From: an uncultured Planctomycetota bacterium
GTDB lineage: Bacteria > Planctomycetota > Phycisphaerae > Tepidisphaerales > Tepidisphaeraceae
DNA: 64,000 nt
Direction: 5' to 3'
Assembly (NCBI GenBank): GCA_963841915.1
Contig: CAWJEN010000006.1
Coordinates: 1,664,001 to 1,728,000 of the forward strand
Both the position numbers and the translations under genes were made by a program. Position 1 is the stretch's first letter. Every line of letters begins with the position of its first letter. This document shows positions 1,127 to 62,114 of this stretch, piece after piece. The notes under the pieces were generated by a model. It worked only from the letters and a program-made list of their open reading frames with translations, ran no database searches and was not told the DNA's origin.

Positions 1127-4100
1127 CTAAGCCTCGACCCGGAAGCGGCCGTTGTCGCTGACCTGATCAAATCGCACCGCAACCCGTCGGCTGACGCCGC
1201 GCTCGGGCATGGTCACGCCATACAGCACATCGGCATGCCGCATCGTCGGCTTCGAGTGCGTGACGATTACAAACTGACTGTGGCCCAGGAAGTCGTCCAA
1301 CACCTTGCAAAAGCGCTCGGTGTTGGCCTCGTCGAGCGGAGCGTCAACCTCATCGAGCACGCACAGCGGGCTGGGCCGACTCTTGAACAGGCTCAACAGC
1401 AGGGCGACGCACGTCATGGCCTTCTCGCCGCCCGAAAGCTGAGTAAGTGTCGCCGGCTGTTTACCGGGCGGGCGGGCCATGACTTCTACACCTGCCGACA
1501 GCGGGTCGTCGTCGTCGTCCGCATGCCGCAGCACAAGGTCGGCCTTGCCGCCACCGAACAGTTGTCGGAACATGCCTGAGAAATGACCGCGTGTGGCTTC
1601 GAACGTCTCGACGAAGCGACGCCCCGACTCTTTGTCGAGTTCGCAGATCAGCTTGTCGAGTTCTTCCTTGGCCGCCCGTACATCGTCGAGTTGCTTCGCA
1701 AGGTCGTCCCGCTGTCGTTCGAGCGCTTCGAGCTCACCAATGGCCTCAGGATTCACGCCGCCCGACCGGTCGATTCTCGACTTCAGGTCGCGTGCCTCAC
1801 GCTCCATGGCGGGCCAGTCTGCTGCCTCATCCTCGTACGTGCCATACAAGGCGACGACGTCGAGCGACCACTCATCAGCCATGCGTGTCACGTGCGTCTC
1901 GAGACGAAGTCGCGACTCCAGCGACGCCGCCTCTGCCGCGTGATGCCGTTGCGCCGCCTCGATGGCAAAAGCACTTGCCGTCGCGACGGTTGCTCTCGCT
2001 TCCGACAACGTCGCGGCGGCGGCTTCGAAAGATGAAGCCCGTTTCTTCACGCGAGCCGCGGCAACCTCCACTTCACCCGCCGCCGACTCGACCTCAGCCG
2101 TCGCTTCGTCGACCTCTGCATGCGCCTCAGCGACAGCGATCCCGACGGCTTGAACTGACTGCTGCATCGCCTGCCGTCGCGCGGCAACTTCTTCTCGTCG
2201 CACACGATCACGTTCGGCCTGCCTGATTAGGGCAGCATGGTGTTCCTCGGCCCGGCCCAACTCCACACGCGCCGCGGCCAACCGCTCGGCCGCCATGGTC
2301 GCTGCTTCGGCGTCTTGACGCATCGCCGCCATCAGCCGATCCCGCTCAGCCGCATGCTGATCGGCGGCAACGCGGGCGACTTTGCCGAAGTCGATCAGCG
2401 ACGTTCGAGCCGCATCGAGCTCGGCCAGACGAGGCGTCAGATCGTCGAGCGTTTCACTCGCAGCCTGAACCTCACGCTCTGCCGCCTCGAGGTTGTCACG
2501 CAGCGTCGCGGCACGTTGCTCCGTTTCTGCCGCGCGTCGGCGGGCGTTGTAAGACGCTTCCCGCACGTCCGACGCCCGGTCCGACGCGTCGCGTGCTTTT
2601 TGGGTTCCAGCGGCGACGGCCCGCTCAGCTTCGCGCAGAACTTCAGCAGCCGCGACCTGCTCCACTGCGACGGCCTTCCGCTCGCCACGCCGGCGAACGA
2701 GTCCGCCGCCGCCTTGCCCGACCACAAAGGTGCCGTCCGCACGAACGAGCCTGCCGTCAGACGTCGCCGTCGTCCGGCCGACCACAGGCGAATCGGCAAG
2801 CACCACATCACCCAGGATGAAGTCGACCAGACCCGCGACGTCTGACGTCACCACGCTCGTCGCCAGCATCACGCCGTCACCAGTGACAGGCGACACGGCC
2901 AAGAGAGCTTCGCGGGGCAACAGCGTCACCCGACCCGCGATGCTGCCGAGCTCCTGCGTCGCCTGCTGGACGTTCGTGTCCGCCGCTAGAAGGAGCCACT
3001 GATCGCGACCGTCCAACGCCGCTTCGACCGCTTGCGACCACGCCGGATCCACCTGCAGCGAGTCGGCCACGAGCGTCGCTGTGAAGCTGAACCCATCCTT
3101 CTGCGAGGTCGGCTGCACACGCTTCAAGACGTCTCGCACCGCCTCGACAACGCCGACACCTTTGGCCTCTGCGTCGGCGAGCATGTCGCTGCGAGAGGCC
3201 AGCACCGCCACGCGTTCTCGGGCTGCGGCGACGGCTTCACCGGCCTTGGATGCAGCCGCATTTGCCGCCTGGACATCAGCCGTCTGCCGCTCGACATCGC
3301 TGGCCGTTGCAGCCTCGGCAGCTTTGGCCGCCGCTGCCGCCTTTTCGGCATCGGCCAGGTGTTCCTGCACCTCGACGTGTTTCAATGTCGCCCGCCGCAC
3401 GCGGTCGTTCGTCTCTTCGATGCGCTCGGCGACTGCGTGCCGCTGTGCCTCGCGTGAGGCCGCTTCGCGATCAGATTGTGCCGCGTCATCCGCCGCACGC
3501 GTTGCAACCGACGTGGCGGCGTCGACTTGTCGGCGGGCGTCATTCTGCCTCGACTGCAATTCGCCGTAAGCAGACCGCTGCGTCTGGGCCGCCTGCCGAA
3601 CATTGGCGACCTTGGCCGCCGCTTCCTCGATGGCAACCGCATCCGCAGAGGTCACAGACGCGAGCGTCGCCGCCTGCTGATCGATGGCCGCTGCTTCATC
3701 TTTAATTGCCGTCTGACGCTGCCGGAGGTCGCCTAGCCGCCGCTGGGCGTACGACACCCGTTGCGACGCCGCCGACTGTCGATTCTCCGCCTTCACACTC
3801 GCCCGCTCGGCCTCTCGCAGCGCAGCTTCTGCCGCGGTTACCGTCTCAGAGGCCGTCGCCTCTGCGGTCGTTGTTTCCGCCTGTCGTGCATTGCCTGCTT
3901 CGAGTGTTTTGCCAGCCTGCTCCAGCGTCTGAACATCCGCACTCTGCTTTTGCGACAGGTCGTGGTACGCGTGCAGCGCCAGTCGCTGTCGAAGCGCTGC
4001 CAGTCGCTCGGTCGCCTCCTGAAACGTCCGCGCCTTCGACGCCGCCAGCCGTGTCGAGCGGACACGCCGCTCGAGGTCATCCGTCACGTCGGCCAGCCGC

Positions 4101-4693
4101 GTGAAATTGGCCTCCGCCTTAGCGAGCCGGGCGGCGGCCTCCTTTCGTTGCACGCGGAAACGGCTCACGCCCGCCGCCTCTTCGAAGACTGCCCGGCGTT
4201 CACGCGGATCGGCTTCGAGCAGGCGATTGATCTGCCCTTGCTCGATCACGCCGTACGCACCGCCACCGATGCCGGTGTCGAGGAAGGCGTCGCGTACGTC
4301 CTTGAGTCGAGACCGCTTGCCACCGAGCAGATAATGACTGGTGCCGTCACGCAGCAACACGCGCCCGACGTCGACCTCGTCGGCATCGAACGGCAGCGGA
4401 CGGCCTGCCTCAGTTTTGGGATTGGCGAAGGTGAGCGTCACCTCCGCCGCGGCGGCGGGCTGCCGCTTCTCGCTGCCGTTGAAGATGACGTCCGCCATCG
4501 CACCACCGCGCAGGCTCTTGGCCGACTGCTCGCCCAGGACCCATTTGATCGCGTCGACGACATTGCTCTTGCCGCACCCATTAGGTCCGACGACGGCCAC
4601 GATGGGCCGGTCGAAGTCGAAGGTCGTCTCGTCGGCGAAGCTCTTGAACCCGCGCAGCTTCAGGCGACGCAGCCGCAGGCGATCGCCTGTCAC
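1127..4693 (-). CDS. smc: Chromosome segregation protein SMC
   Basis: GFKSFA, Walker A GPNGCGKSN, long coiled coils around a central hinge, LSGGE signature, Walker B VLDEVDAPLD; 1188 aa. Confidence 0.95.
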   Translation of the reverse strand: MTGDRLRLRRLKLRGFKSFADETTFDFDRPIVAVVGPNGCGKSNVVDAIKWVLGEQSAKSLRGGAMADVIFNGSEKRQPAAAAEVTLTFANPKTEAGRPLPFDADEVDVGRVLLRDGTSHYLLGGKRSRLKDVRDAFLDTGIGGGAYGVIEQGQINRLLEADPRERRAVFEEAAGVSRFRVQRKEAAARLAKAEANFTRLADVTDDLERRVRSTRLAASKARTFQEATERLAALRQRLALHAYHDLSQKQSADVQTLEQAGKTLEAGNARQAETTTAEATASETVTAAEAALREAERASVKAENRQSAASQRVSYAQRRLGDLRQRQTAIKDEAAAIDQQAATLASVTSADAVAIEEAAAKVANVRQAAQTQRSAYGELQSRQNDARRQVDAATSVATRAADDAAQSDREAASREAQRHAVAERIEETNDRVRRATLKHVEVQEHLADAEKAAAAAKAAEAATASDVERQTADVQAANAAASKAGEAVAAARERVAVLASRSDMLADAEAKGVGVVEAVRDVLKRVQPTSQKDGFSFTATLVADSLQVDPAWSQAVEAALDGRDQWLLLAADTNVQQATQELGSIAGRVTLLPREALLAVSPVTGDGVMLATSVVTSDVAGLVDFILGDVVLADSPVVGRTTATSDGRLVRADGTFVVGQGGGGLVRRRGERKAVAVEQVAAAEVLREAERAVAAGTQKARDASDRASDVREASYNARRRAAETEQRAATLRDNLEAAEREVQAASETLDDLTPRLAELDAARTSLIDFGKVARVAADQHAAERDRLMAAMRQDAEAATMAAERLAAARVELGRAEEHHAALIRQAERDRVRREEVAARRQAMQQSVQAVGIAVAEAHAEVDEATAEVESAAGEVEVAAARVKKRASSFEAAAATLSEARATVATASAFAIEAAQRHHAAEAASLESRLRLETHVTRMADEWSLDVVALYGTYEDEAADWPAMEREARDLKSRIDRSGGVNPEAIGELEALERQRDDLAKQLDDVRAAKEELDKLICELDKESGRRFVETFEATRGHFSGMFRQLFGGGKADLVLRHADDDDDPLSAGVEVMARPPGKQPATLTQLSGGEKAMTCVALLLSLFKSRPSPLCVLDEVDAPLDEANTERFCKVLDDFLGHSQFVIVTHSKPTMRHADVLYGVTMPERGVSRRVAVRFDQVSDNGRFRVEA

Positions 4694-6573
4694 TGTTGAC
4701 CGGCGTCGGCCGACGCCGTCTCACCAAGGCGGCGCTGCTCCAGACCGGGCACAACAGGCGCGACATCACCGGCGTCATTGCCGAAGTCGGCCAGATCCTG
4801 CAGCCGAACGTTCACGACCATCTCGCCACGTCGACCGGCGATGATGTCGTTACGATCGCCTAGCTCTTTCAGCACGGCAACGACGTCGCCGTAGTTGAGT
4901 TTGATGGCCCGCTCGCCCGGCACCTTCTCGCCGCCGAGTCGGCTGATGACTTCGCGAAGATCGGGCAGGGCCCGAACGCTGGCAAATCCATCCTGGCGTG
5001 CGTCAGCGTCCTCGGCTCTGGCTTCACGCTGGAACATGCGGACAACGTCCTCTCCCTCGCTTCGGGCGATTGTCAGGCGGTCACCGAACAGGCTCAGCAG
5101 CAGCGGTGCGCTGAGCCGCGGGACTTCGGCTGTTGGTCGCAGCCCACCGATAACGGCGATGGTCGGGCGGCCGGTCCGCGTCGCGTAGACGATCGGGTTG
5201 CCGTCGCCGGGCGTCAGGTGGAGAATGAAATTGTCGCCCACCGCCCGCTCGTTGACGCCCGTCTGGCCGAGGCCGAGGCGGAGCAGCGACTCGTACGCGG
5301 CAATTCGAACCTGGTCGTTTCCTGCGGCACTGGCGTTGAGCAGGTCGCGGGTCAGCCGACGTACAGCAGTGCTTGGAGGGACACGCCCCAACTCGCGGGC
5401 GGCGGCCACGTTGTAAGGGTGCGAGCGGTCACCGGCTATCGCCTGCAAGGCGCGATTGCCGTACATCTGCTTCAGGTGCGCAGCCGTACGGGCGGCGTAG
5501 AATGAAACCGCGGGGTCACTGTCCGTCAGCAACGGCACCACGGCCGATAACGCGTCGACGCCCATAGCCTGCCAAGCCCGGCTGACACCCAGCAGAACGG
5601 CCTCGTCACCATCGGCAGCCTTGGCGACCTCTGCCAGTACCTCGGCCTGGCGGGCCGAGTAGTCGCTGCTGGAGCTGAGGTACAGGTGCGTCGCGACGCC
5701 GACAAAGTTCTGCCAATCGTCCGGACCGCGGGGCGAAAAGTCACCGGTGTTGGGCAGGCGAAGCTCGACGATTGCCTCGTCCTTGGCCTTGGCGACATCG
5801 CGGCCAAAGTGGTAGTTGATCCGCTGCTCGATAACCCTGGCCATCCGCGTACTGGGCTGGCGGAGGCGAAGAACGATCGGCCGCTCGAACTCGATCTGGC
5901 CGCCGTCGGGCACCATGCCGTTGCGAAGCGACGCGCGGGCGGCGGGCATCTCGACGACGTCTTCAGGCGGCAGCAGGACGAAATTCGGGTTGAGCAAGAG
6001 CGGGCCCCGGGCGACGCCCACCTTGTTCACCTGCTCGCCCGGCCGGCTGGGGCCGACGATGCCTTTGTGCAACTCCGTCAGCCACAAGAATCCACCGGCC
6101 AGACTGGGTGTGGTATTGGTGTCGAGTGCCTCGACCGAGATGTCGATCCGCTGACCGTTTCGAGCAGCCGGCGGGACGAAGCCTTGCACACGAACGACGC
6201 TCGTCCGCGGGTCGGCGAGCAGGGCAGAGGGCGTGAGCTGGCCGAGCTGGCCACCGGTCTGCGGGCTGGCAAGCCCGCGGCGGGCGGCTGTCTCGGCAAT
6301 TCTGTTGCGGACCGGCGTCGGGATGCCGTCGTCGCGGCCGGTGTTATCCAGATTTACAACAAGGCCGTAGCCCGTGATGACCTGCGGCGTGGTGCCAAAG
6401 ACCGTCACGTACTCCAGGATGGTGCCGCGCAAATGCTCCGGCAGGCTCTCGTCGGGCAGGAGCGTGTCGTACCGCGAAACCGGAGCCGGCGCGTCGACCC
6501 GACGCTGACAGCCGACGACGACAAAAGATGCCACCAGGGCGGCGGCGGTGACGAGACGCGCACGGACAGTCAT
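4690..6573 (-). CDS. FlgI (flagellar P-ring)-like lipoprotein with HEAT-like helical region
   Basis: Lipobox VVVGC; FlgI-like N-terminus (ITGYGLVVNLDNTG, VPPAARNGQRIDISV, SLAGGFLWLTEL); HEAT-like segment (PLLTDSDPAVSFYAA); stop overlaps smc GTG. Confidence 0.7.
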   Translation of the reverse strand: MTVRARLVTAAALVASFVVVGCQRRVDAPAPVSRYDTLLPDESLPEHLRGTILEYVTVFGTTPQVITGYGLVVNLDNTGRDDGIPTPVRNRIAETAARRGLASPQTGGQLGQLTPSALLADPRTSVVRVQGFVPPAARNGQRIDISVEALDTNTTPSLAGGFLWLTELHKGIVGPSRPGEQVNKVGVARGPLLLNPNFVLLPPEDVVEMPAARASLRNGMVPDGGQIEFERPIVLRLRQPSTRMARVIEQRINYHFGRDVAKAKDEAIVELRLPNTGDFSPRGPDDWQNFVGVATHLYLSSSSDYSARQAEVLAEVAKAADGDEAVLLGVSRAWQAMGVDALSAVVPLLTDSDPAVSFYAARTAAHLKQMYGNRALQAIAGDRSHPYNVAAARELGRVPPSTAVRRLTRDLLNASAAGNDQVRIAAYESLLRLGLGQTGVNERAVGDNFILHLTPGDGNPIVYATRTGRPTIAVIGGLRPTAEVPRLSAPLLLSLFGDRLTIARSEGEDVVRMFQREARAEDADARQDGFASVRALPDLREVISRLGGEKVPGERAIKLNYGDVVAVLKELGDRNDIIAGRRGEMVVNVRLQDLADFGNDAGDVAPVVPGLEQRRLGETASADAGQQ

Positions 6574-6621: not shown

Positions 6622-7686
6622 TCAGCCGTTGCTGGCCATCTTGCCGCCGACGAAGCCGACGATAAGGCCCAGGATCGGTAGACCTGCGAGCAAGCCCAGG
6701 GCCGGACCCAGGGCAACGGCTCCGTCTTCGCCCATGAGGAAGGACAAGAAGCCCGGATCGCCGCGAAGCACGCTGAGCGTAAGGGCGGTGATGCCGATGA
6801 GGACGACGGCGGCGGCACCGGCGGCGAGCCCTCCGAAGAGCGGTGCGGACGGGTCTATGACTTCGTACGCCGGGGCAGCGGCCATCCGCGTGCCGGCCGG
6901 GGCAGCAGCCGTGTCGATGCCGACACCGCCCGCCGAGTCACCGATGCTGTGCACCGTGCCGCCCGCGACGCTGCCCTCGGGCATGATCTCGTCGAAGGTT
7001 TCGGCACCGAAGCTGGTGTCGTCCGGCTCGTTCGTGAGGTCGAGCAAGCCGCTGCCCGATCCGATGCCTTCGAGAGCGACCTGATCGCCCGACCCGCCGA
7101 GGCTGGTCTGAGCCGACGGATCGACGTCGTCGTCTTCGAAGATGGTGATGCCGCTCTGGCTGGCACCGGCGGAGGTGCCGCCCATGGAGCCAATCGAATC
7201 GTCGAGAGCAAACGCGCCGGTGTCATCGCTCATGAGCGGGGCGCCACTGCTGCCGGGGACGCGGCTGGCACCGCCGACGCCACCGGAGGTGTCGCTGAGG
7301 TCGGCCCCGAGCGAGTCATTGCTGGTAACGGAGTCTTCAAGCTCGATGGCCATCGAGTCGTCGCTCGTCACCGAGTCCTCGAGCGTGATGGCCATGGAGT
7401 CGTCGGCGGGGTTGTCGCCGGCGTCGCTGTCGGACAGGCCGATGCCGCCCATGGAGTCGTTTCCACCGGTTGAATCGGCGAGCCCGATGGGGCCACCGGA
7501 GTCGGCCGGGGAGAGCCCGCCGGCACCTTCGCCCTTGAGCTGCTCGATCTGGCTGCCCTTGTACATGAGGTTGGGGCCGTCGCGATACTCGGTGAGGCGG
7601 CCGTCGCTGACGAGGGACTTGAGTCCGTCGTCATCGGTGGCGAGCTCGGCGGCTGCTTCTTCCTGCGTGTAGAAGGCTTTGGCCAT
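6622..7686 (-). CDS. Excisionase/MerR-like HTH + long acidic disordered region + two C-terminal TM helices (hypothetical)
   Basis: Likely start MAKAFYTQEEAAAEL..LKSLVSDGRLTEYRDG (HTH_17-like); D/S/G-rich middle; two hydrophobic segments at C-terminus. Confidence 0.7.
   Translation of the reverse strand: MAKAFYTQEEAAAELATDDDGLKSLVSDGRLTEYRDGPNLMYKGSQIEQLKGEGAGGLSPADSGGPIGLADSTGGNDSMGGIGLSDSDAGDNPADDSMAITLEDSVTSDDSMAIELEDSVTSNDSLGADLSDTSGGVGGASRVPGSSGAPLMSDDTGAFALDDSIGSMGGTSAGASQSGITIFEDDDVDPSAQTSLGGSGDQVALEGIGSGSGLLDLTNEPDDTSFGAETFDEIMPEGSVAGGTVHSIGDSAGGVGIDTAAAPAGTRMAAAPAYEVIDPSAPLFGGLAAGAAAVVLIGITALTLSVLRGDPGFLSFLMGEDGAVALGPALGLLAGLPILGLIVGFVGGKMASNG
7321..7404 (-). repeat. Two 42-bp tandem repeats encoding DDSMAI(T/E)LEDSVTS
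   Basis: Direct comparison of 7321-7362 with 7363-7404. Confidence 0.85.
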
Positions 7687-7838
7687 ATGGCTTAGGTGGC
7701 GGTTCAGGTTGGTGACGCCGCCGAGGACCGGCGACAGGAGGCGAGCGGCAAAGAGCCGGCCCACAGGCGGGCCGGTCAGCTTCGCAGATCATACCGAAGC
7801 TGTCAAAGCCTTGGCTACCGATGCAACTTCGGCCCGCG

Positions 7839-9449: not shown

Positions 9450-10328
9450 ATGCCCAGCCCTAAGCGACGCAAGCTCGCCCTCATCACCGCCGCCTGCCTG
9501 TCGATTGCCGCGGTCGGCGTGGTGCTTGACACGCCCGTACTCGCTCAGGACGCCGCCGAGGCAACAACGCGCACCTACTCGGGCATCACCGCCCCGAGCA
9601 AGCAGTTCCAGCTCGCGTTGTCAAACCTTGGCAAAGTTGCAGAAGTCTCTGTCGAAAAGGGAGACGAAGTTACTGCCGATCAACTGCTTCTGCGACAGGA
9701 CGACGAGATCGAGAAAGCTCGTCTCGAAGAGCTGGTGGCCGAAGCCGATGTGACCGGCCGCGTCGAGACGGCCCGGCAGCAGGCCGATCTTGCTCGTGTG
9801 CGTGAGACGAGGCAGGAGAAGCTCTTAAGCAACGGTGGTGGCAACCAGCTCGAGTTTGAGGAGGCCAAAATCGGTCGGATTGTCGCCGAGGCCAACATCG
9901 ACGAAGAGCAACGGCAGGGCACTGCTTCGGCGGCACGCGTCAAGCAGCTACAAATCACGCTCCGGCAGAAGGTGCTCAAGGCACCGGCAGCCGGTGTTGT
10001 CCGTTCCATTGAGGCTCGCGTGGGTGAGATGCATGGCCCGCAGGAACCGGTCGTCGAGCTGATCGTGGTCAATCCGCTTAAAGTCGAGGTCCTCGGCATG
10101 CCGCCCTCGCTCGTCGGTCAGATGAAGCGGGGCGACACGGTACAGGTCCGCTATTCGGGCGGTGACGGCTGGCTCGATGCGAAGGTGACGTTTATCGATC
10201 CAGTCGTAAACGTGTCCGTTGATGAGCAAACCGTCGAACTAGAGCTGCCGAATCCTAATGGTCTACCGGCCGGACTTGAGGTTGAGGTACGACCGAGCAC
10301 GGGGCGTCAACGGGCCTCTGCCGAGTGA
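9450..10328 (+). CDS. HlyD/RND-type periplasmic adaptor (membrane fusion protein)
   Basis: Signal peptide, lipoyl half-motifs (GKVAEVSVEKGDEV; LKAPAAGVV), helical hairpin, AKVTFIDPVV..LPNPNGLPAG. Confidence 0.85.
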   Translation: MPSPKRRKLALITAACLSIAAVGVVLDTPVLAQDAAEATTRTYSGITAPSKQFQLALSNLGKVAEVSVEKGDEVTADQLLLRQDDEIEKARLEELVAEADVTGRVETARQQADLARVRETRQEKLLSNGGGNQLEFEEAKIGRIVAEANIDEEQRQGTASAARVKQLQITLRQKVLKAPAAGVVRSIEARVGEMHGPQEPVVELIVVNPLKVEVLGMPPSLVGQMKRGDTVQVRYSGGDGWLDAKVTFIDPVVNVSVDEQTVELELPNPNGLPAGLEVEVRPSTGRQRASAE

Positions 10329-10427
10329 TATAGTTCGAACGAGTCGCTGTTCCTGCTAACGACTTATCTGTGCCGCGTGTCCCGGCGGCAGCCTGATCTT
10401 CCTTCCTGACGCCACGCCCGCTTCGCC

Positions 10428-12413
10428 ATGGCCATTGCCGCCCAGCCCCACGCCCAGCAACCCGAGTCAGAACGCCAGAAGCGTGAGGACGAAGATCGGA
10501 AAAAGCAAGATGGCCGCATCACTCGCACGCGGCTGGTCCAGCGACTTGTTGAAAATGACGGCAACCTGCCGGACTTCATGGAGGATCTCATCGCCGTCCA
10601 GGCGGCTGTGGTCGCCGGCACTGAAGCCGTCGCGTTCCTCATCGAAGGCAAGGACGAGCGGGGCAAGCCCGAGCTACGGACCCTGAAACATGTCCGTCCC
10701 GACAACGTCGAAGATGGCGTTAAACGTCAGGCCATCAATGCGTTTCGCGAAATCGTGACGCAGTGCATTGAGCAGGAAAAAGACGGTGCTCTTCGCGTCG
10801 CAGCCGGCAGCGGTGAGACTGATCCGCAGTTCTGCCTCGTCACATTGCTCCGCCAGGACGAGCGACCCGTCGCCGCGACGGCGGTCATTACAAGGTGCCG
10901 CGACGAGAGCCGAGCGCTTCAGCGGCTGAGCACGATGCAACTCGTCAGCGGCTACTTCGACCTCTTCCTGCTCAAACGCCAAGGCGAGCAAAGTCGGCAG
11001 GTCGCCAAGACACACCAGGACGTGCTGCAGTTCGCCAGCGTCGTCTCGACGGCAGAAGACTTCCAGGCGTCGACCGTCGGTCTGTGCAACGAACTGGCCG
11101 CTCGCACCGGCGCCGCACGCGTCGCCATCGGCTGGGTCAAGTTCCTCGGCGGCGACAAGATCCAGCTCAAGGCGATCAGTCACACAGAAGAATTTGACAA
11201 GAAGCAGGAACTCTCTGTCCAGCTCGTCCGCGTGATGGAGGAATGTCTCGATCAGGACGAGTACTGCCAGTTCGACCCGGCAGGTGAGTCGACCGACAAC
11301 GTCACCCGCGAGGCAATGAAGCTTTCGCAAATGGAGGGCGGCAACCGCGTCGTCAGCGTGCCGTTGCGTCGCCGCGAAAAGCAGGTCGGCGTGATGTCGC
11401 TCGAGTTCCCGCCTGAAAAGCCCAGCACGCCCGCCGAAGCCACCGCACTGGCCGTCGCGGCCGAATTGCTCGCGCCGCAGCTGTACGATCGGTTCCAGAA
11501 CGACCGCTACCTCGTCACGAAGGCCGGCCTAAGCGTTCGCGACAACACCAAGAAGATCTTCGGCCTCCGTCAGCACACGCTGGCCAAAGTGATCGTGCTG
11601 TCGGTCATCGGGTTGCTGCTGTTCCTGGCTTTGTTCTCGCCGATGTACCGCGTGGCGGCACCTTTCGAGTTCGTGCCGATCGATCGTCGCATCGTCGACG
11701 CTCCGTTCGATGGCATTATTGCCAAAGTTAATTTCGACGTCGGTGACACGGTTGCTAAGGGAGACGTGCTGGCGGTGCTCGACACGCGTGACCTCGAGGA
11801 AGAGCTCAAGGTCCAGGAGAAGGACTACCTTCGGTTTGAGGCCGAAGCGGCAGCGCTTCGTTCGCGACGCTCGGAAGGTGAGCAATTTCCCGCCGAAGAA
11901 CGTGCCAAGCGGCTTCAGGCCGAAGCCGCCCAGGCGCGGATGGATCAGATTAAGTCGCAGATTGAGAAGGCCAGCCTCAAGTCGCCCATCAACGGCGTCA
12001 TCCTCGAAGTTCCCGGCACTGAAGACCTCCGCGAGCGGATCGGTACGCAGCTGCGCACCGGCGACCCGCTGGCCGTCATCGGCGACCCGGCCAAGCTTCG
12101 CGTCGAAGCGCGTGTGAACGACCGCGACATTGAAGAGATCAAGACGGGTTACGAAGGCACGCTCGCCACGAGCAGCAAGCCGGGCAAGAAGGTGCCGTTG
12201 AAGGTCGTCAAGATCATCTCCATGGCCGCCGCCGATCCTGCCGCTAGTAGCAATGCCTTCACCGTCATCGCAGAGGTCGACAGCCAGTACCGCGATGAAA
12301 CCTGGCGCCCTGCCGGCACTGGGGAAGTCCGAATCGATGTGGAAAAACGGAGCCTCGCCCGTCAATGGACGCAACGCCTCGATGAGTGGATCCGCCTGAA
12401 GCTCTGGCTTTAA
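10428..12413 (+). CDS. GAF-domain + TM + HlyD-like membrane fusion protein
   Basis: GAF-like N-terminal region (VVSVPLRRREKQVGVMSLE), TM helix, APFDGIIAKVNFDVGDTVAKGDVLAVLD, LKSPINGVI. Confidence 0.8.
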   Translation: MAIAAQPHAQQPESERQKREDEDRKKQDGRITRTRLVQRLVENDGNLPDFMEDLIAVQAAVVAGTEAVAFLIEGKDERGKPELRTLKHVRPDNVEDGVKRQAINAFREIVTQCIEQEKDGALRVAAGSGETDPQFCLVTLLRQDERPVAATAVITRCRDESRALQRLSTMQLVSGYFDLFLLKRQGEQSRQVAKTHQDVLQFASVVSTAEDFQASTVGLCNELAARTGAARVAIGWVKFLGGDKIQLKAISHTEEFDKKQELSVQLVRVMEECLDQDEYCQFDPAGESTDNVTREAMKLSQMEGGNRVVSVPLRRREKQVGVMSLEFPPEKPSTPAEATALAVAAELLAPQLYDRFQNDRYLVTKAGLSVRDNTKKIFGLRQHTLAKVIVLSVIGLLLFLALFSPMYRVAAPFEFVPIDRRIVDAPFDGIIAKVNFDVGDTVAKGDVLAVLDTRDLEEELKVQEKDYLRFEAEAAALRSRRSEGEQFPAEERAKRLQAEAAQARMDQIKSQIEKASLKSPINGVILEVPGTEDLRERIGTQLRTGDPLAVIGDPAKLRVEARVNDRDIEEIKTGYEGTLATSSKPGKKVPLKVVKIISMAAADPAASSNAFTVIAEVDSQYRDETWRPAGTGEVRIDVEKRSLARQWTQRLDEWIRLKLWL

Positions 12414-12515
12414 GAGATGAGGCGAGGGATGCCTCGAAGAAGCCGAAGCCACAGGCCGAGGCACACATCTCATTGAAAACGCGACGCACCTGTCGACACG
12501 CACTGCCTTGACGTC

Positions 12516-14741
12516 ATGACCCTTCAGCTTCGTCCAACATTCTCCGAGTCGTGGTACCGGGTCAAAGACCTCAAGCCGCGCCTCCGCGCTGCCGCCCAGA
12601 TTTCGCGTCAGTTTTACCGCGGCGAGCGGTGGTACGTTGTTCGTGACCCGGCCGGTAATCAGTTCCACCGGCTCAGCGATGTGGCGTATCAGTTCGTCGG
12701 CCTGCTCGACGGCACCCGCACCGTCGGCGAAGCGTGGGAACTCGTCGGCGGGCAGCTTGCCGACGACGCCCCGACGCAGCCGGAAGTCATTCAGATTCTG
12801 TCGCAGCTCTACAGCGCGAATCTGATCGAGACCAATATTGCCCCCGACGCGCAGGTGCTGCTTCGACGCCAGAAGAAGCAACGCGAACGCAAGTTCCAGG
12901 GCCGCCTGATGAACCTTTTGTTCCCGCGGATTCCGCTGTGGGACCCGGACAAGTTCCTCAAGATCTGGATGCCGCTGGCTGCACCGTTCATCAGCCGCGT
13001 CGGCATGGTCCTGTGGATCTTCGTCGTCGGGGCTGCGTTGCTGTTCATCCTGCCCAACGCCGACAAGTTCGCCAACCAGACGCAAGACTTCCTAAGCAAC
13101 GGCACGGTCGAGATGTGGCTGCTGCTGGGCATCACCTTTCTCGGGACCAAGTTCCTGCACGAGATGGGCCACGCCTTTGCCGTCCGAAGGTTCGGCGGTG
13201 AGTGTCACGAAGTGGGCATCATGTTCCTGGTGCTCATGCCGTGCCCGTACGTCGACGCGTCGACGGCGTGGGGCTTCTCGAGCAAGTGGCGGCGGATCTT
13301 CGTCTCTGCCGGTGGCATGATCGCCGAGGTCTTCATCGCCGCCCTTGCAGGCATTGTCTGGTTCATCACGATTGATAACCAGCAGTCGGCTCTCAACCAG
13401 ATCAGCTACTACACGATGCTCATCGCGGGCATCAGCACGATCCTCTTCAACGCCAACCCGCTGCTGCGGTACGACGGCTACTACATCTTGAGCGACTGGC
13501 TTGAGATCCCGAACCTGCAACAGAAATCCCGTGAATACAGCCTCGGGCTCGTCAAGCGGTACATCTTCCGTGTCAAGACCAATCAGCCGCTGCCGGCGAC
13601 GCTCAAGCAGAAACTCTGGCTCGCGTTCTACTGGTCGCTGAGCGGCATCTACCGCATCTTCATCGGGTTCGCCATCTTGTTCATGGTGATCTACTCGCTG
13701 CCCGAGCCGGTGCAGATCGTCGGCTACTTCCTGGCAGCCGGTGCGGTGACGACGTTCTTCATCGTCCCGATTTTCAAGCTCTTCAAATACCTCACGACCG
13801 AAGCCGAGCTTCACCGCAAGCGGACCCGGGCCTGGGCATTTACGCTCAGCGTCGTTGCGGTGCTGGTCGTGCTGCTGGCGATCGTGCCGTTCCCGTCAGC
13901 CGTGCGGGCAGAGGCCATAAGCGAGCCGCTCGATCGTCAGCTCGTCGGCGTCATGTCACCTGGCCGCGTCACCGAGCTCAGCGTCGAAGACGGCGAACGC
14001 GTCGAAGAAGGTCAGGTCATCGCGACACTGTCAAACCCGCAGCTACAGACCGACCTCAAGATCGCCAAGCTCGAGCTGCAGCAAGCTCAAGCCCAACTCG
14101 GCGGCGTCCGGTTCAGCGACCGAGACCTTGCCGCCATCTATCGACGACAAGTCGAAGCCGCCGAGGCACGGGTCGAGTCAGCCCAGGTGCGGGTCGATGA
14201 GCTCGTCGTCCGCAGCCCTGCCGCAGGTATGTTCGTCGCGCCGGACCTTCGTGAGCGGTTCGGCACCTTCATCCAACGTGGACAGCCCATCGGCATCGTT
14301 CAGGACGCCCGCCAGCTCGAGCTCTTCGTCAACGTCGATCAGCAGGCCGCCCAGCGTGTCACCGGCGCCCTCCGCGACGGCAAGGCTCAAGTCCAGGTCC
14401 GGCTCGCCAGCAACATCTCCGAGAACATCAAGAACGGCATCATCGACGACCGTGCGATGCTGACGGCTGCTAAGAACGAATTGCGCAGCCCGGCCATGAC
14501 CGTCGCCGGGGGCGGCACGATCTCTCCCGACCCGCGTGACCCGACAAAGTCGTCACAAAACATGTTCGAGTTCCGGCTCGTTCTGCCCAACCTGCACGAC
14601 GACGGGTCCATCATGCACCTGCCGGGCCAGCGGGCGTACGTCCGCATCAAGCTCGAGGACGAGCCGATCGTCCAGCAGCTGTGGCGTGGGGCGTTGCAGC
14701 TCATCCAAACGCAAACGACGACACAGTCGTCTCAAGGATAA
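12516..14741 (+). CDS. PqqD/RRE-like domain + M50 (site-2) metalloprotease + HlyD-like MFP fusion
   Basis: HEMGH and NANPLLRYDG M50 motifs, several TMs, C-terminal lipoyl-like motif (VEDGERVEEGQVIATL; VRSPAAG); N-terminal LLDGTRTVGEAWE wHTH. Confidence 0.85.
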   Translation: MTLQLRPTFSESWYRVKDLKPRLRAAAQISRQFYRGERWYVVRDPAGNQFHRLSDVAYQFVGLLDGTRTVGEAWELVGGQLADDAPTQPEVIQILSQLYSANLIETNIAPDAQVLLRRQKKQRERKFQGRLMNLLFPRIPLWDPDKFLKIWMPLAAPFISRVGMVLWIFVVGAALLFILPNADKFANQTQDFLSNGTVEMWLLLGITFLGTKFLHEMGHAFAVRRFGGECHEVGIMFLVLMPCPYVDASTAWGFSSKWRRIFVSAGGMIAEVFIAALAGIVWFITIDNQQSALNQISYYTMLIAGISTILFNANPLLRYDGYYILSDWLEIPNLQQKSREYSLGLVKRYIFRVKTNQPLPATLKQKLWLAFYWSLSGIYRIFIGFAILFMVIYSLPEPVQIVGYFLAAGAVTTFFIVPIFKLFKYLTTEAELHRKRTRAWAFTLSVVAVLVVLLAIVPFPSAVRAEAISEPLDRQLVGVMSPGRVTELSVEDGERVEEGQVIATLSNPQLQTDLKIAKLELQQAQAQLGGVRFSDRDLAAIYRRQVEAAEARVESAQVRVDELVVRSPAAGMFVAPDLRERFGTFIQRGQPIGIVQDARQLELFVNVDQQAAQRVTGALRDGKAQVQVRLASNISENIKNGIIDDRAMLTAAKNELRSPAMTVAGGGTISPDPRDPTKSSQNMFEFRLVLPNLHDDGSIMHLPGQRAYVRIKLEDEPIVQQLWRGALQLIQTQTTTQSSQG

Positions 14742-14745
14742 TCCG

Positions 14746-16701
14746 ATGAGTTCTGCCGCAGGCGAGCTGTTTCACATCTTTGACGCCCGTCGTGTCAAGG
14801 CCCCGGAAGTCAAGGGCCTCGACGTAGGTGCCAACGCAGCTGTCGGCTGGGTCAAGCACAAGGTGCCGGTCCTGCGACAGCTCAAAGCCTTTAGCAAGCA
14901 GGTCGACGCGCAGGAAGACGCCGTCCACAAGCTTGGCAGCAACGCGTTCCGAGACGAGGTCGCCAGAATTCGCGACATCGCACGTCGCGGCAAGCTCGAG
15001 CAGGATCAGGCGTCGCTCGTCCGCGCCTTTGCCCTGGGGCGCGAGGCGTCCGTTCGCACGCTCGAGAAGCGGCCGTACCCCGTGCAAATCATCGGCGCTC
15101 GAGCAATCACGCGTGGCTTCGTGGCCGAAATGGCGACCGGCGAAGGCAAGACGCTCACCGCTGCCATTGCCGCTGCAATCTGGTCGTGGAGCGGCCGGCC
15201 TGTGCACGTCGTCACCGTCAACGACTATCTCGTCGCCCGCGATGCTGAGCTGAATCGGCCGCTTTACGAGATGATGGGCACGACCGTCGCCCATGTCACC
15301 CACGAGATCACGCCGCAGCAACGGTTCGGCGCCTATCGCAGCGGCGTCATCTACACGACGAGCAAGGAGATGGTCGCTGACTTTCTGCGCGACCAGATCA
15401 TGCTCGGAGAACAGCGATCGAGCACCAGCACTGCCGTCGGCATGATGTCGGGCAGGCAGAATCGCCCGTGTCTCGTGCCAGGCTTGTTTCGCTGCATCGT
15501 GGATGAGGCCGACAGCCTGCTGATCGACGAGGCCGTCACGCCGCTTATCATCAGCAACGCACCCGAGGGCAATGCGAACGAGCCGCTGTACCGCGAGGCA
15601 CGTGAACTCGCTTTGCAGCTGACGAGCGGGCGGGATTACACGGTCGACAAGACCGAGCGCAAGGTCGACCTCACCGGCCGCGGCAAGACCGCGCTGCACG
15701 ACATCGCCGAGGCCGTCATTCCCGATGAAGACGCCGGCTTCTGGGTCGGGCGTCGTCGTCGTGAGGAACTCGTCACGCAGGCGCTCGTCGCCGAGTACTG
15801 CTTCATCAAAGACGAGCAGTACCTCATCGATCCCGAAGGAAAGATCGTCATTGTCGATGAATCGACCGGCCGCGTCATGCCCGACCGATCGTGGCGGGGT
15901 GGCCTGCATCAGGCGATCGAGGTCAAGGAAAAGCAGGAAGTCACGAGCGACAAGGAAAACCTTGCAAGGCTCAGCTTTCAGCGGTTCTTCCGCCAATACA
16001 CGCACCTGGCTGGCATGACCGGCACCGCCTGGGAGGCTCGCAGCGAGCTTTGGCAGATCTTCAACAAGGCCGTCGTCCGCATCCCGACGAACAAGCCGCT
16101 TGTCCGCAAGCAGCTACCGCTGAAGTTCTTCGGCAAGGCAGACGACAAATGGGATGCGGTCGTCGACCGCGTGGCTGAGCTGCACAAGGACGACAAGCCG
16201 GTCCTCATCGGCACGCGCAGCGTCTGGTCGAGTGAGGAGGTCGCCCGGCGTCTCGAAGCCCGCGGCTTGCCGCACCGCGTGCTCAACGCCCGGCACGACA
16301 AGAGCGAGGCCGACATCATCGGTCAGGCCGGTCAGCCCGGCGGCATCACCGTCGCGACCAACATGGCCGGTCGCGGCACGGACATTCTGCTCGGTCGCGG
16401 CGTGCGTGAAAACGGTGGCCTCAACGTCATCGCCACCGAACCTCACGGCAGCGAACGCATCGACCGCCAGCTGTTCGGCCGCGCCGGTCGGCAAGGTGAT
16501 CCGGGAACCGCCCAAATGTTCGCCTCGGCCGAGGACGACGTCATCAAGCGGCACGCCGACAAGCTCCGCGGCAAATGGCGTGTCGTCGGCGGTGCCCGCG
16601 TCATCCGCGTCGCCCAGAAGCGGGCCGAAAAGCTCGGCCGCTTCAACCGCAAGCAAGTGCTCCGCAGCGACGACTGGATGGACCAGAGTCTGCCGTTTTA
16701 G
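14746..16701 (+). CDS. Secondary SecA-family DEAD-motor ATPase, C-terminally truncated (651 aa)
   Basis: EMATGEGKT, HVVTVNDYL, IVDEADSLLIDEAVTPLIIS, GMTGTA, ATNMAGRGTDI, QLFGRAGRQGDPG; ends shortly after NBD2. Confidence 0.9.
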   Translation: MSSAAGELFHIFDARRVKAPEVKGLDVGANAAVGWVKHKVPVLRQLKAFSKQVDAQEDAVHKLGSNAFRDEVARIRDIARRGKLEQDQASLVRAFALGREASVRTLEKRPYPVQIIGARAITRGFVAEMATGEGKTLTAAIAAAIWSWSGRPVHVVTVNDYLVARDAELNRPLYEMMGTTVAHVTHEITPQQRFGAYRSGVIYTTSKEMVADFLRDQIMLGEQRSSTSTAVGMMSGRQNRPCLVPGLFRCIVDEADSLLIDEAVTPLIISNAPEGNANEPLYREARELALQLTSGRDYTVDKTERKVDLTGRGKTALHDIAEAVIPDEDAGFWVGRRRREELVTQALVAEYCFIKDEQYLIDPEGKIVIVDESTGRVMPDRSWRGGLHQAIEVKEKQEVTSDKENLARLSFQRFFRQYTHLAGMTGTAWEARSELWQIFNKAVVRIPTNKPLVRKQLPLKFFGKADDKWDAVVDRVAELHKDDKPVLIGTRSVWSSEEVARRLEARGLPHRVLNARHDKSEADIIGQAGQPGGITVATNMAGRGTDILLGRGVRENGGLNVIATEPHGSERIDRQLFGRAGRQGDPGTAQMFASAEDDVIKRHADKLRGKWRVVGGARVIRVAQKRAEKLGRFNRKQVLRSDDWMDQSLPF

Positions 16702-16740: not shown

Positions 16741-16771
16741 GGCAGCTGCGGCTCTTAGACCCGCAGCTACC
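16741..16771. terminator. GC-rich hairpin between convergent genes
   Basis: GGCAGCTGCGG-ctcttagac-CCGCAGCTACC. Confidence 0.55.
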
Positions 16772-39626: not shown

Positions 39627-40552
39627 CCGAAGTAAGCTCCAACATGAACCAGAACTCCAGTACATTTCGCCTCGGCGTGGTCGGCATCGACTCGTCGCAC
39701 CTCTCGGCCTTCACTTCGCGTATTGCCGACCTCAATGGCGCAGGTAAGACGGCCTGCCGGGTGACGCAGATGTGGACCGACGGCCGTCACGAGATGCCTG
39801 AAGAGGACGTGGCGACGTGGAAGGCCGACGCTGAGAAGCTTGGTGTTACGACGGCCGATTCACTTGACGCACTGCTCGACAACGTGGACGGCGTGATGGT
39901 GCTGGCCGTCAACGGCAACCGTCACCTGGAGCTGGCGCTGCCGTCGCTCAAGCGAGGCTTGCCGACATACGTGGACAAGCCGCTGACGTGCTCGCTGAGC
40001 GAGGCCAAGGAACTTCTCGCCGCCAGCCGAGGAGGCAACGCCCGGTGCTACTCGGCCAGCAGTCTTCGTTTCGTCCAGGAGCTCGAAACACTCGACCGCG
40101 GCGTGATCGGTAACGTCGTCGCTGTCGACGCCTTCGGCCCAGGCGAAGTCAACGACTCGATGGCCGGCCTGTTCTTCTACGGCGTGCACGCAATCGAACT
40201 CGTCGACGCCCTCATGGGTCCGGGCGTCGCAAGCGTGTCGTGCGTCAACGAGGCCGACCGCGACCTTGTCCGCCTGCGGTACAGCGACGGCCGCTTCGCC
40301 TCGATTCGGCTCGAACGCAAGGGCGGCTACGCGTTCGGTGCCACCGTGCACGGTGAGAAAGACGCGGCGTCCTTCGTCGTTGATTTTGCCCCGGTCTACG
40401 CCCGCCTCGTCGCCGGCATGTGCCGCTTCTTTGAAGGCGGCGACGCTCCGGTGGACCTGCGGGACATTGTCGAGAACGTCGCCGTCATGGAAGCCGGCAA
40501 CGCCTCGGCGGCGGCGGGCGGTGCCTGGGTCGACGTGGAAACCATCTCATGA
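39623..40552 (+). CDS. Gfo/Idh/MocA-like oxidoreductase
   Basis: GIDSSH, YVDKPL, SASSLRF, FFYGVHAIE; start 39623 or 39644. Confidence 0.85.
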   Translation: MTEVSSNMNQNSSTFRLGVVGIDSSHLSAFTSRIADLNGAGKTACRVTQMWTDGRHEMPEEDVATWKADAEKLGVTTADSLDALLDNVDGVMVLAVNGNRHLELALPSLKRGLPTYVDKPLTCSLSEAKELLAASRGGNARCYSASSLRFVQELETLDRGVIGNVVAVDAFGPGEVNDSMAGLFFYGVHAIELVDALMGPGVASVSCVNEADRDLVRLRYSDGRFASIRLERKGGYAFGATVHGEKDAASFVVDFAPVYARLVAGMCRFFEGGDAPVDLRDIVENVAVMEAGNASAAAGGAWVDVETIS

Positions 40553-47303: not shown

Positions 47304-47385
47304 ATGAGTTTCAGCCACCGCTCGCTCAACCGCGATCGGCGGCCTTTGCGGCACCGTCCGCTTTCCCTTGCCTCTTGGAGTTGGA

Positions 47386-61457: not shown

Positions 61458-62114
61458 ATGAACCGTCATTGCTTTGCCTGCGAAACCCTCGAAACTCGCC
61501 GCCTGCTCTCGGCCACGGCACCCTCGGCACAAGTCGCCGACGGGTACTTGCTCATCTACGGCACTGAAGAGGCCGACGCCATCTTCGTCGACAGCGGGGT
61601 CGGTCTTGAAACCGACGTCCGTATCTCCACGCCCGCTGGTGAAGCCAGCTACACGTTCGCCCCGTGGAGCTTTGGCGGCATCCACATCGACGCAGGCGGT
61701 GGGGACGACCTCGTCAGCACCAACGACGTCGTTGCCTGGCTCGGTGGCAGCATTCTCGGTGGCACCGGTAGCGATGCAATTTACATCACCGACCCCAACG
61801 TCAGCCAAGATTTCTACCTCGATGGCGGCTCGGGTGACGACACCATCGACATCTACGGCGGCACCGTCAACGGCGTCATCTTCCGTGGCGGTGAGGGCGA
61901 CGACCACGTCAAGCTCCAAGGCACCACCGTCTGGAATTACGTCAGCTTCCAAGGTGATGCGGGCAACGACTCGTTGAGCATCCTTGACTACTCAACGATT
62001 TACGGCTTTACCTACGTCGACGGCGGCGAGGGCAACGACGTGCTCTACACCGACGACAGCGGCATTCTCGGTGGCCTCTACTTCATCAACGTCGAAGAGC
62101 CGCTCTTCGCCTGA
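61458..62114 (+). CDS. Extracellular protein with LE.RRLL (LEPR-XLL-like) leader and Ca-binding GGxGxD repeats
   Basis: ETLETRRLLS at the N-terminus; DAGGGDD, GGTGSD, GGSGDD, GGEGDD, GDAGND, GGEGND. Confidence 0.85.
   Translation: MNRHCFACETLETRRLLSATAPSAQVADGYLLIYGTEEADAIFVDSGVGLETDVRISTPAGEASYTFAPWSFGGIHIDAGGGDDLVSTNDVVAWLGGSILGGTGSDAIYITDPNVSQDFYLDGGSGDDTIDIYGGTVNGVIFRGGEGDDHVKLQGTTVWNYVSFQGDAGNDSLSILDYSTIYGFTYVDGGEGNDVLYTDDSGILGGLYFINVEEPLFA

Follow-up and report, generated by a model that had tools for sequence, protein, structure and literature searches.

How could an operon export proteins if it encodes three periplasmic adaptors, a membrane-embedded protease and part of a SecA motor, but no ABC transporter? 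This question is raised by four same-strand open reading frames (ORFs) at positions 9450-16701 (+) of a 64,000-nucleotide stretch of planctomycete DNA, the whole of which is called the window below (C6:1664001-1728000 of an assembly of 3.63 Mb in 6 contigs, 93.8% complete). In order, the genes encode a membrane fusion protein (MFP), a GAF-transmembrane (TM)-MFP protein, a fusion of an RRE (recognition element of RiPPs, peptides made by ribosomes and then post-translationally modified), an M50 zinc protease and an MFP, and a SecA-like ATPase. We consider it probable that the operon forms the inner-membrane and periplasmic parts of a leader-guided, TolC-dependent exporter for proteins with an E-x-LE-x-R-x-LL-[AST] leader; our verdict is that it is a variant of type I-like secretion. 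This reading links an orphan export signal (Planc_extracel/LEPR-XLL, found on some of the largest known bacterial proteins) with a secretion-like locus that has been an orphan since its description in 2015.

The operon and its proteins

ORF calls and domain searches agree with the original prediction as to the four co-oriented genes and their domains. The first gene (9450..10328, +; 292 aa) encodes a plain periplasmic MFP with a Sec-type signal peptide at its hydrophobic N-terminus (HlyD_3, E 9e-9), which also scores above the cut-off for RND_mfp (TIGR01730; 96.7 against 94.9 bits). The second (10428..12413, +; 661 aa) encodes a tandem GAF-TM-MFP protein (Pfam GAF E 3e-4, HlyD_3 E 3e-20). Here the predicted architecture is right, but not the single GAF domain: the AlphaFold2 (AF2) model (pLDDT 91) has two GAF-type folds and one TM helix at residues ~385-403, and Foldseek finds the tandem-GAF protein PDE6 (E 5e-11) in addition to MacA/EmrA. 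The GAF pair is predicted to sit on the cytoplasmic side. The third gene (12516..14741, +; 741 aa) matches PqqD, Peptidase_M50 and HlyD/MFP, and the fourth (14746..16701, +; 651 aa) matches SecA_DEAD, PP_bind and P-loop families. The ATG at 14746, taken here as the start of the SecA-like gene, is preceded by an AAGGA motif and lies 4 nt past the M50 stop; the GTG at 14536 chosen by the ORF tool would overlap the M50 gene. There are three MFP domains, one in each of the first three proteins. As had been predicted, ABC, RND and TolC genes are absent from the operon and from the flanking ORFs scanned, and the four proteins contain no C39 or ABC domain.

The third protein is the invariant core of the machine and likely its leader receptor and peptidase, judging from its sequence and its AF2 model (pLDDT 93.9). 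Its RRE (residues ~12-108; 12549..12839, +) is delimited by the model, structure matches and conservation, and has the three-strand, three-helix PqqD fold; in VIA-align it matches the lasso RRE 6jx3_B (Z 9.6, rmsd 2.9, 84 aligned) and 5v1u_A (Z 9.4). The strand at residues 49-54 bears R52, a position at which 128 of 130 homologues have Arg, and is the predicted leader-binding edge. The M50 part has the site-2 protease fold and matches RseP (7w6z; Z 10.3, rmsd 3.5, 135 aligned), SpoIVFB (Z 9.3) and mjS2P (Z 8.6). Its zinc ligands lie in membrane helices, in the HExxH motif HEMGH (residues 215-219; 13158..13172, +) and in the NxxPxxxxDG motif (13449..13478, +), which supplies the third ligand, D320. 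Among the 130 homologues, H215, E216, N312, N314, P315 and D320 are invariant and H219 is conserved in at least 90%. The MFP part matches MexA (Z 16.8, rmsd 3.9, 221 aligned). A PDB sequence search with the RRE-M50 part gave nothing significant, the Foldseek lists for the second and third proteins are dominated by MFPs, and the ESM Atlas contains only M50/PqqD/MFP clusters of like kind. The nearest named relatives of this protein belong to Tepidisphaerales (74% identity), which suggests that the genome is that of a phycisphaeran planctomycete.

The locus in other genomes

The original prediction referred to a report of secondary SecA_DEAD proteins associated with type I secretion-related genes. 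This reference is right: Kamneva, Poudel and Ward (2015; PMC4452313) describe the same locus, consisting of a secondary SecA_DEAD protein with Peptidase_M50/HlyD, GAF/HlyD and HlyD proteins, with or without OEP; the one in Methylobacterium extorquens AM1 is listed by them as META1p2399-2402. (Here and below, statements on cited work refer to the portions of the text accessible to us.) They propose that SecA provides the ATPase activity and M50 the pore, and call the role "completely unknown"; the inference that SecA and M50 replace the ABC transporter is therefore not new. As in their locus, SecA_DEAD without SecA_SW lies here beside M50/HlyD, GAF/HlyD and HlyD genes, ABC genes are absent and the canonical SecA is encoded elsewhere. 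In contrast, the accessible text names no cargo, RRE, leader cleavage, or SecA-less or dead-SecA forms, all of which are described or proposed here. Thus, the locus itself is known from genomics, while the leader-RRE-M50 link is absent from the literature that we searched; the search, which was thin on subscription journals, found no mechanistic study, and the accessible parts of reviews on adaptors and type I secretion have no relevant passage on M50, GAF or SecA.

Homologues of the RRE-M50-MFP protein number at least 4810 (4239 representatives at E<=1e-30). Of 563 loci that were confirmed, the best 80 served for counting neighbourhoods; they were picked by one motif and are hence biased to this subtype. 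Neighbours were identified by BLAST with proteins of this genome, so that the counts are floors, and position counts require a flank of at least 1 kb. The GAF-MFP gene lies upstream of the M50 gene in 68 of the 70 loci with enough flank, and the SecA-like gene lies downstream in 67 of 73; the gene set is conserved far beyond chance. At 41 well-flanked loci, we find a third MFP at 32, TolC at 10, DUF3467 at 5, an ABC ATPase at 2-3 (never adjacent) and RND at none.

Several loci depart from this layout. DUF3467 occurs inside the cluster in other genomes, and its single copy here (C6:1557342-1557719, +) follows a glutamate synthase-like gene; since it lies ~116 kb from the operon and is linked at so few loci, it was rejected as a core component. 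In a Pirellula-type cluster (L169, genome G353), the SecA-like gene comes first, accompanied by DUF3467, two leader proteins and a divergent BBP7 beta-barrel gene, with no TolC in view. RRE-M50 proteins without MFP (L204-L211) form a separate branch, which was used as outgroup; some lie near ABC genes, and some are fused to cNMP-binding domains (e.g., L210:4882-8265).

Leader-bearing proteins of the genome

By motif and profile search of the genome, ~45 ORFs with E-x-LE-x-R-R-L-L-[AST] near the N-terminus were found in scattered genes; true matches of the leader profile mostly score 12-28 bits, against 10.3 for the best reversed-ORF decoy. The leader is that of Planc_extracel (PF07595) and LEPR-XLL (NF012209), for which a role as export signal has been suggested (Studholme 2004, as cited in PMC8567305); PF07595 also gives 38 matches at E<=1, one of them above cut-off. 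In T. immobilis, 52 genes have the motif, and 20 of them were seen as proteins, 8 solely in the SDS fraction (PMC8567305).

We analysed 40 leader ORFs, which range from 193 to 2651 aa and together make up 3.3% of the genome. The motif is N-terminal in all 40, 7-35 residues from the chosen start, and conservation stops right after LL[AST][AT]. None has a TM segment or a Sec signal, and the mature proteins contain only 14 Cys in 39,353 residues (0.036%), compared with 1.06% in six cytoplasmic controls. The domains are of extracellular type: Pfam assigns 16 dockerin, 5 RTX, 5 protease and several lectin or carbohydrate-binding module (CBM) proteins, and no family to 6 (n=41, including an example in the window). 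The latter candidate cargo (61458..62114, +; 218 aa) has the leader ETLETRRLLSA, is Cys-free past the leader and contains RTX-like Gly/Asp repeats. Of the seven ORFs with at least three RTX-like repeats, six carry the leader; the seventh starts 587 bp behind a short leader-bearing ORF and looks frameshifted. In 14 of the 40 leader proteins (L112-L151), S[LI]F[AGS] and acidic residues (e.g., ASLFADEE) stand at the C-terminus, usually after a dockerin-like repeat, and this tail is a possible second sorting or anchoring signal. Several leader genes appear to be split by frameshifts or joined by read-through to a neighbouring gene (C6:505138-505344/501693-504551, C6:1243152-1243472, C6:1245297-1248654 and C5:228866-229930), through either assembly errors or decay.

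Among 44 dockerin-like ORFs, a PEP-CTERM-like match is found in 1 of the 17 with a leader, compared with 24 of the 27 others; because leader and Sec/PEP-CTERM signals nearly exclude each other, dockerin-like proteins appear to follow two sorting routes. About 93 ORFs in the genome carry a PEP-CTERM-like signal at the C-terminus, in many cases behind a dockerin-like repeat (e.g., window 47308-48567), and constitute another large family of putatively surface-sorted proteins, which exists alongside the leader family.

These properties bear on three alternatives to an exporter of leader proteins. According to the first, SecYEG receives the leader proteins from the SecA-like protein (in SecA-less loci, from canonical SecA), the M50 protein is a dedicated leader peptidase, and MFP and TolC take up periplasmic cargo. 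This two-step route, which we think unlikely, would explain loci without SecA (see below). It is also favoured by a preprint on Chl. chlorochromatii, which passes two LEPRxLL giants to its partner; the giants are mostly cytoplasmic and give a periplasmic signal only in consortia (bioRxiv 10.64898/2026.03.19.712371). However, the leaders found here are charged and have no h-region, with a best 9-residue hydropathy of 0.73-2.18 in the 40 leaders and 1.96-3.84 in 8 signal-bearing controls, the two ranges overlapping slightly. The exclusion between leader and Sec/PEP-CTERM sorting is a further objection, and the fusion of the M50 and GAF proteins to MFPs points instead to a direct conduit from membrane to TolC.

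The second alternative is that the cluster does no more than process or release cargo, or signals by GAF-controlled intramembrane proteolysis, while an ABC exporter encoded elsewhere carries out the transport. M50 proteases are classically regulatory, and the tandem GAF, which suggests sensing, and the separate type I systems of many carriers (e.g., Chl. chlorochromatii) would fit. Nevertheless, this genome has RTX-type leader proteins and no type I HlyD above the TIGR01843 cut-off (in an assembly of the completeness given above), its five ABC_membrane genes have no MFP among their same-strand neighbours, judged from N-terminal sequences, and the related loci rarely contain an ABC ATPase and never an adjacent one. 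Three MFPs and a linked TolC clade would also be hard to account for if the cluster transported nothing. We regard this alternative as improbable.

The third alternative is that the machine exports small RiPP-like peptides, the large leader proteins being bystanders. The RRE and the nearest named family, the daptide peptidases, do stem from RiPP biosynthesis, and one SecA-less locus (L182) is adjoined by a short leader ORF only. On the other hand, no genes for RiPP precursors or modifying enzymes flank the operon, and the leader stands on proteins of the sizes given above and, in other genomes, on proteins as long as 19,211 aa, whose genes often share the operon, so that we give this explanation hardly any weight.

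Co-occurrence of leader and machine

The original prediction expected the cluster to co-occur with LE.RRLL-leader proteins, and so it does in three evenly drawn samples: the phylum of a Desulfomicrobium genome, the class of an Accumulibacter genome, and the phylum of our genome. In each comparison, the genome at the centre of the sample was left out. The M50 fusion is present in 16/201, 39/270 and 58/201 genomes of these samples, in that order. In the Desulfomicrobium-phylum sample, the leader is found at E<=0.05 in 8/15 genomes with a full-length M50 gene and in 9/185 others (including six genomes with an MFP-less RRE-M50), and in an ORF of at least 1000 aa in 7/15 and 0/185. In the Accumulibacter-class sample, where one genome was unscored, the leader is found in 24/38 M50-positive and 13/231 negative genomes at E<=0.05, and in 15/38 and 2/231 at E<=1e-3. 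In addition, the NF012209 leader is present in 5/5 machine-positive genomes from distant groups and in 0/14 controls.

For our own phylum, PF07595 proved too weak and noisy (13/57 M50-positive versus 14/143 negative genomes; 12 of the 14 negatives were inspected, and none had an N-terminal leader), and it was therefore replaced by a profile built from the leaders found here, with a bias towards leaders of similar type. This profile matches 23/57 positive and 7/143 negative genomes; inspection of six of the seven negatives gave internal or antisense matches. Two genomes, G387 (98% complete) and G208 (100%), have neither the machine nor true leaders, and the machine is found in 4/5 and 11/12 sampled genomes of their families.

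Recognition of the leader

From alignments of the RRE-M50 part (residues 1-435) and of a leader of 47 residues, their complex was modelled together with three controls. The complex scores 0.65, compared with 0.00 for the best control; among 157 solved pairs, 116 attain the score mark, as do 2 among 215 mismatched ones. The runs have no fewer than 61% of their contacts in common, and the pLDDT of the partner is at least 44. In the model, leader residues F16-L19 pair with RRE strand 50-54, which contains R52, and the confident interface covers leader residues 12-26 and includes E216, H219, residues 243-249 and D320. The leader motif is thus predicted to run from the RRE to the zinc site.

There is a precedent for this arrangement: the daptide peptidase MpaP, also an RRE-site-2 protease fusion, is described as removing an ELExMEAP-type leader (PMC10036551), similar in its Glu/Leu motif to ExLExRRLL. 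The operon protein matches the daptide peptidase family (NF041824) with E 3e-41 but at 141.8 bits, below the curated cut-off of 300, and differs from MpaP by its MFP fusion, its protein cargo and the absence of modifying enzymes and of a daptide gene cluster.

The SecA-like protein

As the original prediction supposed, the fourth gene encodes a truncated SecA paralogue, and a separate full-length secA exists on the same contig (C6:797449-801438; 33% identical). The SecA-like protein consists of nucleotide-binding domain (NBD) 1, the PPXD clamp and NBD2, with only the beginning of the scaffold helix; wing, two-helix finger and tail are absent. It gives no SecA_SW match, and the family profile ends at residue ~605-608 of B. 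subtilis SecA, short of wing, two-helix finger and Y743. The truncation is a family trait, since copies from related loci end similarly, typically 67-95 residues past motif VI. The motor residues are intact: Walker A (MATGEGKT with K135; 15130..15153, +), DEAD (residues 253-256) and motif VI (575-584) are present, Q114, K135, D253, E254, R376, D546, Q575, R579 and R582 are kept from the catalytic set and clamp named for B. subtilis SecA, and so are the C-loop arginine and the PP loop of the clamp. All SecA2 models score below cut-off. Compared with accessory SecA2 and SecA2-SecY2 systems, the locus shares a second SecA beside the canonical one, but the protein is ~200 residues shorter and the locus contains no SecY2.

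In our own phylum, a truncated SecA above threshold is found in 36/57 M50-positive and 0/143 M50-negative genomes, and we therefore consider it dedicated to the machine. This count comes from a strict first-look search, with 35 genomes scored by frame length, score or adjacency and one dead copy by inspection; three short SecA frames inspected in M50-negative genomes are of the canonical type or another SecA. All 23 M50-positive genomes with a LExRRLL-type match also have the truncated SecA.

These counts, the complete catalytic set in our protein and the retention of Walker A by 60 of the 65 copies from related loci would fit the original prediction that the truncated SecA replaces the ABC ATPase as an obligatory motor. 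This explanation differs from the exporter proposed here in SecA's weight alone, and SecA may well be essential in this subtype. As a general rule, however, it is quite unlikely. There are SecA-less clusters of MFP, GAF-MFP, M50-MFP and TolC genes with intact HExxH and no adjacent exporter ABC, which adjoin leader proteins of the LEPRMxFD, MEERIVLD or LENRVLL type, often with DUF4347, and 5/5 genomes with such a cluster have a single, full-length SecA. Moreover, the SecA-like copies of two clusters (G340 and Seongchinamella) have neither Walker A nor DEAD. Because related machines have no SecA-like protein or a catalytically dead one, it looks like an accessory clamp or motor rather than an indispensable energiser, as far as sequences can tell. 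Of the original prediction, ABC-less, TolC-dependent export with M50 processing and three MFPs is supported, and SecA as the replacement motor is not.

Two SecA-like genes in otherwise intact clusters (L184:11130-13106 and L093:11823-14075) are still full length but no longer encode Walker A, DEAD or motif VI; their products are pseudo-ATPases. The idea that SecA-less forms are ancestral was dropped. FastTree (62 rows) nests the SecA-linked clade (support 100) among SecA-less lineages, making these paraphyletic, and places a further planctomycete clade with SecA apart; since the approximately unbiased (AU) test on a 27-row subset does not reject a single SecA-less clade (p 0.07), no order of gain or loss is claimed.

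How could such a fragment act? SecA moves chains by its TC-beta/PP-loop clamp, while the finger guides them into SecY (PMC9926265); therefore, the fragment could ratchet cargo on a partner other than SecY. Giant proteins of Omnitrophota bear fused wing-less SecA domains, a parallel use of the same fragment (preprint). The similarly truncated E. coli SecA-N68 is a constitutive ATPase whose affinity for SecYEG is high, but it is unable to translocate (PMC5603524). Its affinity and the conserved PPXD, which docks on SecY, favour the two-step route through SecYEG, whereas its inability to translocate and the missing finger and wing of our protein argue against it.

The outer-membrane partner

Nine TolC genes are found in the genome, seven of which adjoin RND or MacAB-type genes. 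An orphan TolC-family lipoprotein (locus L110; C3:6146-8377, -; 744 aa) has no adjacent pump. It is the best match to the cluster-linked TolCs of other genomes, at 300 bits compared with 263 and at most 103, and groups with those of planctomycetes in a quick tree (SH-aLRT 99). On this sequence evidence, it is the best candidate for the outer-membrane partner, and this plausible TolC in trans would fit the expected co-occurrence with a TolC-like gene. Two near-identical TolC/MFP/RND blocks (C2:9821-17662 and C6:1314703-1322487; TolC branch lengths 0.015-0.04) represent recent duplication or assembly redundancy.

Proposed mechanism and relation to known systems

We propose the following four steps. 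First, the E-x-L part of the leader would attach to the cytoplasmic RRE of the M50 protein by adding a beta-strand to it, as modelled. Second, the R-R-L-L-A end would reach the zinc site in the membrane and be cleaved there, LL/[AST] or a position beside it being the most likely site; the motifs are observed, and cleavage is deduced from them. Third, the unfolded chain would pass, N-terminus first, through a membrane assembly in which the M50 helices join the anchor of the GAF-MFP protein, enter a mixed ring of the three MFPs, and leave through a TolC encoded elsewhere, C3:6146-8377 being the best candidate. Fourth, the SecA-like protein, which keeps the ATP-driven PPXD clamp without the parts that enter SecY, would serve as an accessory ratchet or holdase that feeds cargo. 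In machines with no SecA or a dead one, the drive would have to come from folding outside (calcium-binding RTX, dockerin, Ig or cadherin repeats) or from the proton gradient. The GAF pair may be a cytoplasmic docking or gating module, which is the weakest step. We infer the TolC partner, direction, pore and energy source of export, as well as its independence of SecY.

Several observations weigh against this mechanism. Site-2 proteases are not known as translocons. The M50 model is a monomer; the original prediction of an inner-membrane processing and channel unit is supported for processing, while the channel is putative. The complex score may mirror likeness to a known binding mode rather than binding, because RRE-leader complexes have already been solved, and the leader's own fold is uncertain in the model. 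A TolC gene lies beside only 10 of the 41 well-flanked loci, and the SecA-N68 analogue of the truncation binds SecYEG and cannot translocate. In four M50-negative draft genomes (G119, G141, G490 and G643), there are genuine leader genes, and a deeper search found no machine. Conversely, 34/57, 14/38 (E<=0.05) and 7/15 M50-positive genomes have no leader match; insensitive profiles and broken assemblies account for some of these, and variant leaders lie beside several. The Fisher values overstate the association, because the sampled genomes are kin. Finally, the authors of the preprint on Chl. chlorochromatii assign the LEPRxLL giants to TolC/SapC/HlyD, C-terminus first (bioRxiv 10.64898/2026.03.19.712371). 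In one of the four draft genomes (L201/L202, G643:C57), a 7373-aa leader protein has a nearby adaptor that belongs to a metal-efflux-type RND system. In favour of the mechanism, Chl. chlorochromatii does export its LEPRxLL giants, and the supplementary trees of Kamneva et al. list two SecA proteins and members of clusters 2-4 for this organism (PMC4452313).

With type I secretion (HlyB-HlyD-TolC, LapBCE), the proposed exporter shares the MFPs, the predicted TolC conduit and Cys-poor cargo of the RTX, Ig and cadherin type. Type I systems have an ABC transporter; here a cognate ABC is absent, and there are three different MFPs, two of them fused to other domains. The conserved signal is N-terminal here, which implies a polarity opposite to that of type I secretion. 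Peptidase-containing ABC transporters (C39-ABC, double-glycine leaders) likewise have an N-terminal leader that is read and cut by the exporter's protease, as we suppose here, but their C39 domain is cytosolic, whereas our protein is an intramembrane M50 protease with an RRE, without ABC domains and with large-protein cargo. The SecA-like protein has the DEAD-motor residues and PPXD clamp of canonical SecA and SecA2 without their wing and two-helix finger, and the absence of any pump gene from the operon sets it apart from RND, MFS and MacAB efflux. Whether all this amounts to a distinct secretion type, in which a RiPP-derived RRE-M50 is the substrate gate of a TolC conduit (N-terminus first, with a short cleavable leader, ABC-free, in some lineages without a dedicated ATPase and in others with a SecA fragment as a SecY-free ratchet), is in our judgement evenly balanced.

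One machine here would serve more than 40 scattered genes for proteases, carbohydrate-binding and adhesin-like proteins. Because the cargo is ordinary-sized and numerous, the machine would be a general secretome route, not an accessory for giant proteins alone. If it is such a distinct secretion type, this route carries about 3% of the DNA's coding output, and it fills a gap by giving both the export signal described for planctomycetes in 2004 and the largest proteins of bacteria a way out of the cell. The proposal, if true, would add a widespread export route, provide an example of a site-2 protease and a SecA fragment at work in roles other than the textbook ones, and offer a short N-terminal tag for the secretion of very large proteins. 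The link between leader and machine names testable parts, namely R52 (receptor), E216 (protease), K135 (ATPase), the predicted cut site and the candidate TolC.

Other features of the window

The operon is flanked upstream by obgE and downstream, on the opposite strand, by a 194-aa gene of no known family and a Na/Ca exchanger gene. We rejected obgE as an operon member, an Obg-like BLAST match being found at only 2 of 80 related loci. The operon had been predicted to end at a hairpin. An 8-bp GC-rich stem does lie in the gap between the SecA-like and the convergent gene (16744..16768, no strand assigned), but it is not distinguishable from chance (z -0.96; 35/200 shuffles fold equally well), has no U-tract and received no terminator call. 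There is no Rfam match anywhere in the window.

Two genes on the minus strand lie upstream of smc (1127-4693): one encodes a FlgI-like/HEAT-repeat protein of 627 aa (4690-6573), and the other an acidic protein of low complexity that lacks annotation and has a TM segment at its C-terminus (6622-7764). At 40549-42585 (+), a 678-aa Amidase_3/beta-lactamase-fold fusion adjoins two GHL10 glycosyl hydrolase-like genes.

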